From: Plasmodiophora brassicae
Taxonomy: Eukaryota
Direction: 5' to 3'
DNA length: 64,000 nucleotides
NCBI GenBank assembly: GCA_036867785.1
Contig: CP145413.1
Location: 1,240,001 to 1,304,000 of the forward strand
Shown: positions 22,884-36,190 of the stretch, piece by piece
How the letters are laid out: every line of letters begins with the position of its first letter
Numbering within the stretch: position 1 is the first letter of the stretch
The notes under the pieces: model-generated
Databases searched by the model: none
Told to the model about the DNA's origin: nothing
The model's input: only the letters and a program-made list of their open reading frames with translations
Position numbers and translations under genes: made by a program

Positions 22884-23353
22884 ATTATCGCGATTCCAAC
22901 GCTCTATGTACTTGGCCGGGAGCGCAGGGCTAACAGCCACATTCTGTCGTTGACCCCGAATTGGGAGCCGGTTTTCGTTGAGAACCTGCGCAACGCTCGG
23001 CGGGTCGCTCTCGATGACGGGAGCAGTTGATCTATCTCGCGGAGCGCGGCACGCCTCCAAGCCCGGCGTTCGAGCAATTGGGGCAGTTGCTGCAAGCGCA
23101 TGTGCCTCATTTGGCACATACGATGATCTCGTTGCTGCACCAGGTCGTTTTAAGGCGACTAGGCAACGCGCCACGTCGCTATATTCAGCAAGCGATCTGT
23201 CAGCAGCCTGTCTGCGGCGGGCACCTGCCATCGAGAGCGATCCGCCGAGCGTTGCGCAGGTTCTCAATGAAGATCGGCTCCCACTTCGGTGTCAACGACA
23301 GTATGTGGCTGTTAGCCGCGCCCGGGCAAGTAGAGCTTTGGAATCGCGATAAT
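22884..23353. repeat. Long imperfect inverted repeat (fold-back, ~470 nt)
   Basis: 22884-23024 is the reverse complement of 23221-23353, with a perfect 26-bp core (22978-23003/23242-23267) and a central mini-hairpin atgtgcc-tcattt-ggcacat at 23100-23119. Confidence 0.92.
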
Positions 23354-23520
23354 ACAATTCCGCGTTCTTGAGTGTCTTGTGGCGCGCCGCTCTGTAGACC
23401 AGGTCGACGTGCAACTGGCTTGTGCCAGGCTTGTACTTCCCGTGCTGTTCGGCGCAGAACGCGAAACGACGACTGGCGCGGACGTTCCTGGGAATGTGCA
23501 ACGAAACAATGCGCCGTTTT
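23221..23520 (-). mobile_element. Degenerate tyrosine-recombinase-like coding fragment (possible YR-element relic)
   Basis: Frameshifted translation KTAHCF..DLVYRAARHKTLKNAELYYRDS resembles the C-terminal His...Tyr catalytic region of tyrosine recombinases. Based on remembered motifs only. Confidence 0.35.
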
Positions 23521-23589
23521 ACTGCGGCGTTACTCGTACGTCGGAATGTGGCACGGGGGTAGCATCGACAGGTTCATCGTCATTTTTGG

Positions 23590-24183
23590 ATGCTGCTGGT
23601 TGTGCTCCTCGCCGCTGTCGTTTGGGTTGTCGTGGCGGTGTCGTGGAGCCGCAGGCCGCGCCACCGGGACGATGCGGGGACGATCGTGACGCTGGCCGTG
23701 CTGGGGTCCGGTGGGCACACGTCCGAGTTGCTGACGGTGATGAAGGGTATGGACCGGGGCCGGTACCGCCCTCTGCATTACGTCGTCGCGGATACGGACC
23801 GGACCAGCCAGGGCCGTGTCCTCGATCAGGACGCGGTCGTGCATCTCCTGCCTCGCAGTCGCCATGTTGGGCAGTCGTTCCTGAGCGCCGTTCCCACGAC
23901 ACTGGTCGCTATACTCGCGGCGATCCGCCTCGTGCTCTCGGTTCGACCGGAACTGGTACTTTGCAATGGGCCCGGGACATGCGTTCCAATCTGCATTGCA
24001 GCGGTCGCCTCGCGCCTGCTTGGTCGTTCCTGTCATATCGTGTTCATCGAGAGCTTCTGTCGCGTCCGGACCCTGTCCCTATCCGGGCGTATCATGTATC
24101 ACGTCGCAGCGTCGTTCTACGTCCAATGGCCGACACTGCAGGCACGATATCCTCGTGCGAAATACATCGGCTTGCTGTGCTGA
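23590..24183 (+). CDS. ALG14: UDP-GlcNAc transferase subunit ALG14
   Basis: N-terminal TM, VLGSGGHTSE, RSRHVGQS, LCNGPGTCVP, FIESFCRVRTLSLSG and VQWP. Confidence 0.95.
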   Translation: MLLVVLLAAVVWVVVAVSWSRRPRHRDDAGTIVTLAVLGSGGHTSELLTVMKGMDRGRYRPLHYVVADTDRTSQGRVLDQDAVVHLLPRSRHVGQSFLSAVPTTLVAILAAIRLVLSVRPELVLCNGPGTCVPICIAAVASRLLGRSCHIVFIESFCRVRTLSLSGRIMYHVAASFYVQWPTLQARYPRAKYIGLLC

Positions 24184-24281
24184 TCGCCGTCCGTCGGCTG
24201 CCAAGATATCTGGCGCCGATCGCCCCGACCCGTACGCTCGTCGATCGATCTCTTGGAGAATCCCCAGGAGTCGTATGCAGT

Positions 24282-32787: not shown

Positions 32788-32815
32788 GGGGGGAGGGGGA
32801 GATGGGGGAGGGGGG
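32788..32815 (+). other. Potential G-quadruplex motif
   Basis: G6-A-G5-AGAT-G5-A-G6 between the malic enzyme stop and the COQ7 start. Confidence 0.55.
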
Positions 32816-32911
32816 CGTTCTAGTGTGAAAACCCCAGCTGCAGCTGCCGCGTCGTCGACCACGGCTTGTCTGCACGCACCGGGCAGTCGCGACTCGCGAC
32901 CCCGTCGCCAG

Positions 32912-35554
32912 CTACGTCTGCGGGACGATCGCCGCGTAGTGCGGGTCCCAACTCTACAAGGGCCCAACGTTAGCAACGGCGTGGTACGCGGCGCGTCCCT
33001 GCGGAGCCGACCTCGTGTTCGACGACGGCGCGGATGACGTCGTCGTCTTCAGGCAGGGGCGTTCTCGCGACCTGGTCGTCTTGGGCGGCTCGCACAACTG
33101 CTCGCGGCGGTCAGCGCGAATTGCGTTCAGCGCCTGGGGGTCCAGACCTTTGACGGCGATGGACTGCGTCACGCCGCGGATGGTGTCGAGATCGGGGAAA
33201 ATCAGGCCCCGGTCGAGGCGTTCTTGTGGGACCTGAGTTACCGGGTCAGGTGGGACGTTGTCGCGGACGACGTGTTGCCGCACCTGTTCGGCGAGCTCCA
33301 GCGATGCGGCCAGCAGCATGCCTCTCGTGACAAGCTTGGCGTTGGCGATGAGCGCGCCCAGCCCCAGCCCCGGGAACGTGTACATGTTGTTCGCCTACAG
33401 CGGCCATGTGAATCAGTGGGGACCGCACCCATGGACGACAATACTGCCCGCAACCTGGTTGACTTCGACGACTCGCCCATCGGGCATCGCGACGGGATCG
33501 AACGGGCTGCCGCTGGCGTATATCGCGGTGCCGTTCGTCCAGGCCAGCGCATCGGGTGCCGTGCACTCCGTGTTCGCCGTCGGATTGGACAGCGGGAAGA
33601 TGATCGGGCGCTGTGCCACCGATTGACGCCCATGTCAGCGGCGGACACGGGAGCCGGCTACCTCGTGGTGCTTGGACATTTCCCGGACAACGTCTTCCGA
33701 GAACAGCCCGCTGATGCCGGTCACGCCGATCAGAATGTGCGGCTTCAGCGTCCTGACAGTGTCGAGTAGCGAAGCGCCATCAGCAATAGGACCCTACACG
33801 GCATGTTATCCGATGGGCCAGAAGCCGCCGACTCCACCCTACGTCGTGGAGGAATGGCCCCTGTGCGGAGGCGTACTGCTGACGTCCGGCGCCGAGCGCG
33901 CCGTACTGGTCGACCAACGTGAGGTTCCGAAGCGCTTTGTCGTAGGACAGCCCGAAGCTCTCCATGGCGAACGCAAGGGATTCGGCAATGCCAATCCCTG
34001 CCGTCCCGGCACCGGCTATCACGATGCGTTGATCACAGAGGGCACTGGGAGAGTTATGCCCAATTGAGCGGAGAGCACCGATGACCCCGGCAACGCAGAC
34101 GGCACCGGTCCCCTGCGGAAGGAGACGCAGTCAGCAACCCCAGGGGCCCATGGATGTGTCGACGGCGTCGACACACCTGGATGTCGTCGTTGAAGCACAG
34201 GATCTCGTCTCTGTACCGCTGAAGAACAGGGATAGCGTTCTCGTTGTTGAAGTCCTCGAACTGCAGCAGGATATGGGGCCATCGGTTCTTGAGAGCCTGA
34301 ATGCATTCGTCCCTGAAGGCACGCTGTTAACACCTGGAACACTGCTCCACAGAGTCACCCCCGTTTACAGAACGGCAAAGTATTCATCGCCCCGCAGGCG
34401 TTTCTGCTTGATACCGAGATACCCCGCTCGCGTCAGGAGCTCCTTGTTGTCCGTGCCGACGTCAAGGAACACAGGCAACGTTCGCGAAGGATGGATTCCT
34501 GCGATGGCACAGTACAGTGACACTGCAGGTGGCATAGTCAGAGGAGACATCCGCGAGCGAGGGCACAGAGCCGGCCTACATTTGCCTATTGGAATCGCCA
34601 TCCCGTTGACGCCCAGGTCGCCCAGACCTGAAGCAGAAACGTTACTCCCTGATCTCGACGGCAAGACGAGCACAACCCGGACCGAGGATGCGGCTTCCGT
34701 CTGTAATGACGGCGATCTGGACGTCCTCGCGGGGCCAGTTGTACGCCATGGAGATCATTGCGCCTCTGTCGTTCGCACTGAAGAAGAGCCCTCTCGGCCG
34801 CCGAAACAGTTCCCCGTAATTCTTTCCAGACGGAGGGTGTCAGTGACATGCACGCCAATCAAACAGAAAGGAGCCATCGTTAGTTACAAGGGCTCCGAGG
34901 CCGACGGTCGGCGTGTCTGTCGACAGAATCAGCCGCGGACGGACGCACCAGAACGCGGCATCGTGCACCCACAGATCACAGGAGCAAGCTCTTTCAGGTT
35001 GTCGCCTGAGGAGAACAGTCAGCCCTGCCTCCGAATCGCGCCGCAACGCCGCCGTACAGAGGATGCGGTAGAACAGGACCTCGTTACGATCCTGCAGGCT
35101 GTTCAGCGTGGCAAACCGGAGCAGATTGTTCGGCAGCGCCCTGATGCGCTTCATCAGGCGGTTCTTTTGTTTCTGACCCATCAGTCAGTCCGCAGGGGCC
35201 CAGGATCTGCCTATCGTCGCAGCCGCAGGCCACAGACCTCCAGGTTCTCATCGACTGTCGGCGGAAGCAGCCCCCGGATCCCTAACCGATCCCGTTCATG
35301 CATGGGGAACGCCAGTCCCTTGTTCAACAGCGGGTCGTTCAGGACCGCCATCCCCGTCTTCGCCGTCTTGTTCAGCACGCCTGGCCGCGAATGCCCCCGC
35401 GTCGTCTACGTTGCTCAGAGCGATCACGATACGCCCCGAAACCAAATTCCTGCCGCACCTCGACCCAGTCGTCCTTCGTGTTCGTGTAGTGCGACCGGCA
35501 GGCGACTGGCGCGCGCACGCGCCCCATCCGGACGACGCGACGCATCATTGCCAT
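32912..35554 (-). CDS. NAD(P)-dependent malic enzyme, probably mitochondrial
   Basis: [56 protein letters not shown] and [12 protein letters not shown]; basic N-terminal presequence; many short introns. Confidence 0.92.
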
Positions 35555-35902
35555 CACCAACGCTGGTGACGGGCGCGCCTCGACCCCCGTCACGTTAGCA
35601 AAAACGCCGAGGTCGTCACAGACGGGCGACATCGGCCTGCATCAGATCTCACCCCGTCATGCAGCAGTCGTTCCCTGCGGGCGACGTCGCCTGCGACTGC
35701 AGCACGCCTCCGTGGGCATGCTCCCCCCGTCAAAGGGGACACATCGATGATGCGTTTGCAGTTAGGCCAGTGGGAGAGAACGCCGGGCGCTCTTTGACGC
35801 CAAGACCTCTTCGTAGCTTCATCGAGCGCGTCACAACGCGTCACAACGCGCCATGGCGCAGCGTCGCGTAGCCAGCGCCGATCGTGCAGGGAAACGCGTC
35901 GA

Positions 35903-36190
35903 AGTTCGGCCTGGCCAGGGTGCAGACGACCTTCCCCTGCCTGGGACGGGCTCAGGTCTACTTCATGGATCCTGACGCGCAGACCGATGGCCTGCATCGT
36001 CTCGTGGATGATGTGGAGCGCTTCGCGATCGAGGTCGGGGAAGATGGCGGCGCGGCGATCAGACGTCTGCGCGTCAGGATCCATAAAGTAGTTCTGAGCC
36101 GGTCGTCGAACGCTTGCAGGGGACCGATCCATTGGTTCAGCAGGTCGTTGACGCCGAACGTATATACGCCATCGCGCATGCTGGTCAGGG
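35903..36190. repeat. Fold-back hairpin with near-perfect 34-bp stem
   Basis: 35951-35984 pairs with 36065-36098, with a perfect 20-bp core atggatcctgacgcgcagac. Pairing extends outward (tcccctgc/gcagggga, gttcggc/gccgaac). Confidence 0.9.
35985..36190 (-). mobile_element. Degenerate Helitron Rep/helicase N-terminal fragment
   Basis: Frameshifted translation DGVYTFGVNDLLNQWIGPL / AQNYFMDPDAQ..RRAAIFPDLDREALHIIHETM resembles the Helitron pattern GxYTFxxxG...HxIGxL...AQxYxxD....R......LD. Based on remembered motifs. Confidence 0.55.

Follow-up and report, generated by a model that had tools for sequence, protein, structure and literature searches.

Can transposon fragments that are folded back on themselves between divergent genes feed RNA interference (RNAi) in the parasite Plasmodiophora brassicae? 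The question is raised by a 64,000-nt stretch of its genome (assembly GCA_036867785.1, contig CP145413.1, positions 1,240,001–1,304,000 of the forward strand; this whole stretch is called the window, and positions below are counted from its first letter), in which a first-pass annotation had read two hairpins, about 13 kb apart, as decayed mobile-element fragments archived inside bidirectional promoters. The best explanation, towards which we lean with some reserve, is that these are two unrelated fold-backs, and that one of them, hairpin 1 (HP1), is a hairpin made of recombinase fragments that could feed RNAi. The other, hairpin 2 (HP2), is a smaller palindrome for which we found no homologue.

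We compared the window with its own reverse complement by BLAST, which gave 27 local pairs at an expected value (E) of ≤50, but only three at E < 1e-3. These three are HP1 (E 1e-38), HP2 (E 7e-9) and a palindrome at 1570–1614 (45 nt, 84% match, E 4e-6), the last of which lies within an open reading frame (ORF) of 1251 codons that has no Pfam match. HP1 extends over 470 nt in total, from 22884 to 23353, and is made of the following parts.

22884 to 23024, + strand: HP1 left arm, 141 nt, a sense-like copy of the tail of a recombinase gene (from the inverted repeat and tblastn).
23025 to 23220, no strand: HP1 spacer or loop, 196 nt, largely a continuation of the left recombinase fragment (from the inverted repeat, tblastn and folding).
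23221 to 23353, + strand: HP1 right arm, 133 nt, which reads as recombinase antisense on the + strand (from the inverted repeat and tblastn).

The arms are identical in 121 of 133 aligned columns, with 8 gapped nt in addition, and the longest perfect run is 26. RNA folding of HP1 gave −325.8 kcal/mol on the + strand and −303.3 kcal/mol on the − strand (z −22.5 and −20.0 against shuffles), and the folding of HP2 was also well below shuffles on both strands (z −7.7 for + and −8.7 for −). Folding energy shows no preference for a transcript strand, as HP1 and HP2 each fold about equally on either, and G-U wobbles favour the + strand of HP1 by 5 to 1 among six transition mismatches counted by hand, which is not significant. 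Direct comparison found no common sequence in HP1 and HP2. Hence both inverted repeats that the first-pass annotation had named were recovered where it had placed them, and they are unrelated to each other as it had said.

What, then, are the arms of HP1 made of? When they were read in all frames, one frame that points inward on both arms stayed open, and the differences between the arms were mostly conservative. A word-based search with the right-arm ORF found no homologue among longer proteins, and a HMMER search with this ORF against 1.84 billion proteins gave six matches at E ≤ 0.001. One of these (P0001) is the window's own left-arm ORF, and four (P0002, P0003, P0005 and P0006) are members of one family, in which P0003 is a 743-amino-acid (aa) protein and P0002, P0005 and P0006 are short decayed relatives; P0004 was dropped as an unrelated repeat protein. 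In tblastn, P0003 aa 466–496 (74%, 31 aa) and aa 500–533 (62%, 34 aa) were placed on 23408–23209 of the − strand (E 2e-19), and P0003 aa 491–526 (22908–23015) together with aa 558–602 were placed on 22908–23158 of the + strand (combined E 3.5e-14). P0005 aa 35–70 and 103–152 matched the left fragment as well (combined E 9.5e-17), and the right fragment has no similarity right of 23408. The two fragments are delimited as follows.

22883 to 23173, + strand: left Crypton-like recombinase fragment, about aa 482–602 of P0003 with aa 527–557 missing; it takes in the left arm and the greater part of the loop.
23209 to 23408, − strand: right Crypton-like recombinase fragment, aa 466–533 of P0003 with one frameshift; it has the ARH...YYRDS tail.

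By these alignments HP1 is two tail-to-tail fragments from one Crypton-like tyrosine-recombinase gene family. Its stem is the part common to both fragments (about aa 482–526), and its loop the unduplicated continuation of the left fragment. The arms carry frameshifts, stops and an internal deletion, and such decay would also be seen if HP1 were only a rearranged transposon relic, and HP2 a palindrome arisen by chance or replication slippage, both decaying in the sole places where they are tolerated, with no meaningful small RNAs and no function. We hold this account of inert debris to be unlikely, and return to it below where other evidence bears on it. A further observation concerns P0006 (74 aa), a decayed copy of the same gene tail, which keeps about 25 residues that are missing from the left fragment and beyond them aligns, in a shifted frame, with 9 residues where the HP1 loop begins. 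Its match pattern therefore points to related relics at other loci.

The family from which HP1 derives can be followed in longer proteins. Among named proteins, P0003 is closest to a hypothetical one from Spongospora subterranea (P0007, 63% identity) and next closest to one from the chytrid Zopfochytrium (P0008, 36%), and a metagenome contig of 2788 nt (L001) carries an intact relative of 749 codons at 129–2378 of its + strand, with 25% identity and the conserved residues kept. The family therefore extends beyond plasmodiophorids and chytrids. Residues R301, K336, H449, R452 and H475 (P0003 numbering) are invariant in the three aligned full-length proteins P0003, P0007 and P0008, and a tyrosine pair at 483/484 is found in P0003, P0007, P0005 and the right fragment of the window, a position at which P0008 is not aligned. 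We read this pattern as the catalytic R-H-R-Y of tyrosine recombinases; the window fragments contain only the region from the last histidine onward. In a PHROG search the integrase families phrog_1 and phrog_216 were the sole families matched, with E 1.3e-7 for P0008, 9.5e-4 for the L001 ORF, 1.2e-3 for P0003 (aa 260–502) and 0.99 for P0007, so that three of the four full-length members match, and the matches cover the expected catalytic region. Look-alike clusters in a protein atlas (scores 0.94–0.97) carry Phage_integrase, DUF3504 and NDC10_II, and the latter two derive from Crypton recombinases according to the part of Kojima and Jurka (2011, PMC3212892) available to us.

We call this family 'Crypton-like', a putative assignment which refers to the recombinase gene by which the family is known here and does not extend to element termini. 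Cryptons carry a recombinase but no reverse transcriptase, which sets them apart from DIRS/Ngaro, and they end in short (4–6 bp) direct repeats and have neither TIRs nor LTRs. No Pfam domain of any kind is present in the 743-aa and 749-aa proteins. On L001 there is no other ORF of at least 100 aa save one antisense inside the gene, although the flanks are so short that a neighbouring reverse transcriptase gene could escape notice. In all, the family sequences seen in P. brassicae material and the databases as decayed or partial copies are the two window fragments, one paralogue in RNA contigs (below) and three decayed database ORFs (P0002, P0005 and P0006). Rhizaria has 0 mentions in the available part of Kojima and Jurka (2011, PMC3212892), the repeat table for P. 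brassicae (Table S5 of Zhang et al. 2026, PMC13547706, a paper that is used here through its available parts) is without a Crypton class, and our literature search returned no publication linking Cryptons to Plasmodiophora. A Crypton-like recombinase family is now seen in plasmodiophorids, namely in the window and in Spongospora.

Is HP1 represented in RNA? RNA contigs of four public runs, one from each of four studies, were placed on 22000–37500; these are contigs and not raw reads. One run has a contig at 22859–23200 (depth 7.6), and another has one at 22943–23259 with a depth of 61.7, compared with 40.8 for the contig of the adjacent gene. The latter contig reaches across the loop into part of each arm and does not differ from the window. 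A separate RNA contig, present in three runs (depth 175, 181 and 51), matches 23212–23391, from which it differs by 12 substitutions and a 4-nt insertion; its flanks on both sides are unrelated to the window. We considered whether it was an allele, which is ruled out by the co-occurrence of both versions in one run; it is therefore a paralogue located elsewhere. By hand translation its upstream flank resembles the conserved recombinase stretch that stands just before aa 466 of P0003. Moreover, paralogue and window agree at every base of 23212–23265, a stretch of 54 nt, of which 45 lie inside the right arm. The similar depth of HP1 and its neighbour in one run speaks against inert debris.

The left arm, the right arm and the paralogue were compared over the 133 aligned arm columns. 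The paralogue has 9 unique sites, the left arm 9 and the right arm 0, while all three differ at 3 sites, and the right arm has its own 4-nt deletion. This difference of 9 against 0 is not predicted by equal decay of a simple inverted duplication, and so counts against plain debris; it could stem from insertion of the two fragments at different times, from gene conversion, or from selection acting on whichever arm would provide the antisense guides.

How could such a fold-back act? According to the available parts of Zhang et al. (2026, PMC13547706), the small RNAs of P. brassicae are 21 nt long, phased, 5′-C-biased and mainly intergenic, and the parasite has two AGO proteins and a Drosha-like nuclease (PbDRL) that cuts long double-stranded RNA (dsRNA), while neither Dicer nor RNA-dependent RNA polymerase (RdRP) was found; the origin of the precursors of its small interfering RNAs (siRNAs) is called unclear there. 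The RNAi machinery presupposed by the first-pass annotation is thus present in its AGO and Drosha-like parts, but not in the form of Dicer and RdRP. Because this RNAi pathway is a working one that cuts long dsRNA, and RdRP is missing, genomic hairpins are a natural source of dsRNA. In the mechanism that we propose, a transcript through the HP1 block would fold into long dsRNA, PbDRL would cut it to 21-nt siRNAs without Dicer or RdRP, and guides cut from the right arm, if the transcript is of the + strand, would after loading on AGO pair perfectly with the mRNA of the paralogous recombinase, given the 54-nt identity described above. We think that HP1 probably yields small RNAs, whereas it is doubtful that these would measurably restrain the element. 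In that paper (PMC13547706) long dsRNA is a substrate of the nuclease and small-RNA loci are mostly intergenic, so that a 133-bp stem, if transcribed, would hardly escape the pathway, which is a further point against the fold-backs being inert. Transcribed inverted repeats of a transposon gene are therefore a concrete candidate for the precursor origin that the available parts of PMC13547706 leave open, and public data exist in which this can be followed.

Several results weigh against the feeding of RNAi by a recombinase-derived HP1. The contigs have no strand or ends, their depth is a poor measure, and carry-over of DNA is possible. The available parts of PMC13547706 describe 234 microRNAs (miRNAs), with precursors of 58–993 nt (Table S8), and in the legend of Fig. 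2G a 'palindromic genomic region' is named as the source of 21-nt RNAs. On comparison by eye, none of the 234 miRNAs of Table S8 lies inside HP1 or HP2; siRNA and PHAS loci appear there as coordinates of another assembly. The depth of the paralogue contig is like that of ordinary genes, which would be unexpected under strong silencing, but this point is weak as contig depth measures expression poorly. As to the recombinase itself, the family has no match in Pfam (even at E ≤ 10), in NCBIfam or among PDB sequences, and an AlphaFold model of P0003 from a 10-row alignment had a mean pLDDT (predicted local distance difference test) of 43.5, too poor to use. The lack of published miRNAs in either hairpin, the high depth of the paralogue contig and the weak RNA cover of HP2 are likewise what favours inert debris.

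HP2 has to be judged separately from HP1, and its one feature is given here.

35945 to 36104, no strand: HP2, an imperfect palindrome of 160 nt with outer arms at 35945–35984 and 36065–36104; no homologue was recovered.

In the outer arms, of 40 nt each, 36 of 40 positions match and there is a 20-bp perfect run; the inner part is weaker, and over the whole 80 + 80 nt 59 of 76 columns match. The depth of the RNA contigs at its centre (36021) was low, at 9.8 and 2.7. HP2 had no Pfam match at E ≤ 0.001 nor at E ≤ 10, no usable match in the protein atlas, no homologue of its 66-aa frame among longer proteins in a word-based search, and no tblastx match in the window other than the palindrome itself. 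Phase-specific GC settled no coding frame, and no paralogous RNA contig was placed on HP2 at 90% likeness. The description of both hairpins as inverted duplicates of a decayed mobile-element coding fragment accordingly holds for HP1, with its recombinase fragments, and is not supported for HP2, which gave no homologue in any search. For HP2 we see two readings, a small precursor of the miRNA type or an inert sequence. A perfect core of 20 bp in a stem of 40 bp would be in keeping with a small hairpin precursor, but this is only a possibility.

Why do both hairpins lie between divergent genes? Within 22000–37500 the gene map draws on the RNA contigs, and elsewhere in the window it is built from ORFs and Pfam alone. 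Contigs of all four runs skip stretches of 50–65 nt, which are bounded by CT..AC in the genes to the left of both gaps and by GT..AG in the gene to the right of HP2. As these stretches are intron-like, the contigs derive from spliced RNA and reveal the strands of the genes, and the four genes that flank the hairpins are as follows.

18951 to 22736, − strand: leucyl-tRNA synthetase (LeuRS) gene, multi-exon, left of HP1 (Pfam pieces; CT..AC joints up to 22719 in four of four runs).
23557 to 32042, + strand: cyclase-PH-phosphodiesterase (cyclase-PDE) gene, right of HP1 (Pfam and RNA contigs).
32957 to 35632, − strand: malic enzyme gene, multi-exon, left of HP2 (Pfam and CT..AC joints).
36234 to 37400, + strand: HhH-GPD DNA glycosylase-like gene, right of HP2 (GT..AG joints in four of four runs; Pfam HhH-GPD; 37400 is not a determined 3′ end).

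The LeuRS start codon is at about 22736, and the malic enzyme starts at about 35632, where an ATG was read from the sequence. RNA contigs of the glycosylase-like gene start at 36234–36329, with an in-frame ATG at 36318, and for the cyclase-PDE gene three runs have contigs starting at 23557–23603 and the fourth has one starting at 23343, with the first in-frame ATG at 23979. The claim that the hairpins stand between head-to-head genes was thus borne out, with LeuRS/cyclase-PDE and malic enzyme/glycosylase as the two divergent pairs.

The contig that starts at 23343 raises the alternative of a cis effect, in which HP1 would belong to an extended 5′ leader of the cyclase-PDE mRNA, or to a transcript from upstream, and would influence the expression of the cyclase-PDE gene and not act in trans. 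This contig begins at the outer end of the right arm and continues unbroken into the cyclase gene, and the first in-frame ATG comes only at 23979. However, the contig of the gene starts at 23557–23603 in three of four runs, and because contigs break at repeats and merge overlapping transcripts, continuity proves nothing. We therefore consider a cis-acting leader highly improbable, and retain the reading of HP1 as a hairpin that would act in trans through RNAi.

The first-pass annotation had further stated that the two gaps are the longest divergent gaps in the window. This is plausible, as the other gaps delimited by ORFs are about 80–300 nt, but the comparison is circular because 526 of the ~820 nt that separate the LeuRS start from the cyclase transcript belong to the transposon-derived block, so that the insert itself lengthens the gap. 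Survival at harmless sites together with gaps lengthened by their inserts explains the placement at least as well as storage does, and the position of HP1 and HP2 in divergent gaps is best explained by tolerated insertion sites that happen to be transcribed, and not by a dedicated archive. That the gaps are long mainly through inserted DNA (as calculated for HP1), and that there are only two cases, is also in favour of inert debris.

The wider proposal was that inverted pieces of transposons are stored systematically in bidirectional promoters across the genome, where they would form a dispersed memory against transposons and supply RNAi. HP1 fits this description, and the missing RdRP (in the available parts of PMC13547706) makes genome-encoded hairpins an obvious source of dsRNA. 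But HP2 is without transposon homology and the sample is two, the third significant palindrome of the window is inside an ORF, gap length and the presence of a hairpin are confounded, and no piRNA-like (PIWI-interacting RNA) signature is described for P. brassicae in the same parts of that paper. Neither a shared design nor an enrichment in bidirectional promoters can be shown by two cases in one window, one of which has no transposon homology, and the shared design of the first-pass annotation was not supported. We regard such systematic storage as very unlikely. The arrangement of HP1 is of a known kind, and a common 'system' is unproven. A related and bolder idea, which we offer as a long shot, is that in a parasite without RdRP and Dicer transposon-fragment fold-backs at divergent promoters may be the main dsRNA source of anti-transposon siRNAs, and that the arm giving the antisense guides may be kept near its target while the other drifts (0 against 9 unique substitutions). 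If this were true, it would answer how siRNA precursors arise; if the hairpins were silent, they would be ordinary transposon debris.

Some observations on the surroundings stand apart from the hairpins. The G+C content of the window is 58.5%, and Table S4 of PMC13547706 gives 59.4% for the P. brassicae genome. Among the loci in the tables of that paper available to us, pairs about 13 kb apart on one contig gave no convincing match. At 14300–18900 the G+C is lower (49–51%) and ORFs of at least 100 codons have no Pfam match, which limits the gene map there. The ORF at 23379–32042 (+ strand, 2887 codons) contains adenylate/guanylate cyclase domains, a weak AAA_16, a PH domain and a class I cyclic-nucleotide phosphodiesterase, and would put the maker and the breaker of a second messenger in one protein. 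Between the cyclase-PDE and malic enzyme genes lies a COQ7 gene on the − strand (Pfam). The 3′ ends of the cyclase-PDE and COQ7 genes are about 90 nt apart (32042–32132), and one RNA contig spans both in two of four runs. The two 3′ ends may overlap, and if they do, the overlap would be a further RdRP-free source of dsRNA.

How does HP1 compare with systems that are known? Its source gene resembles that of Crypton transposons in coding for a stand-alone protein of ~745 aa with a putative R-H-R-Y pattern, in its weak but consistent matches to integrase profiles and in its DUF3504 and NDC10_II look-alikes, and differs in that no Pfam model matches the source family. As a fold-back, HP1 can be set beside Mu killer of maize, where part of the MuDR transposase gene is duplicated in inverted orientation; Mu killer silences MuDR, and siRNAs have been demonstrated for it. 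Mu killer and HP1 are both partial inverted duplicates of a transposon's own enzyme gene that lie outside the element. Mu killer is transcribed into a hairpin able to target active copies, and the counterpart in HP1 is its RNA cover together with the 54-nt identity to the paralogue. In contrast to Mu killer, HP1 derives from a putative tyrosine recombinase and not from a Mutator-like element (MULE) transposase, its arms are older (91% match) and decayed, and it is known here from sequence and RNA contigs alone. Hairpin loci that give endogenous siRNAs (endo-siRNAs) are known in Drosophila, and plant proto-miRNA genes are born by inverted duplication of their targets. Like HP1, these loci are long inverted repeats encoded in the genome, with arms derived from the target, and they provide dsRNA without RdRP; they are processed by Dicer, whereas P. 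brassicae has only the Drosha-like enzyme in the available description (PMC13547706). Nearest at hand are the long-hairpin precursors of P. brassicae itself in the available parts of that paper: HP1 (470 nt) and HP2 (160 nt) are within their range of 58–993 nt and share their intergenic setting, but those precursors, unlike HP1, are not linked there to fragments of transposon genes or to divergent promoters. HP2 shares with them a stable stem, under RNA cover of low depth, and HP1, like them, has a stable stem-loop in a transcribed region.

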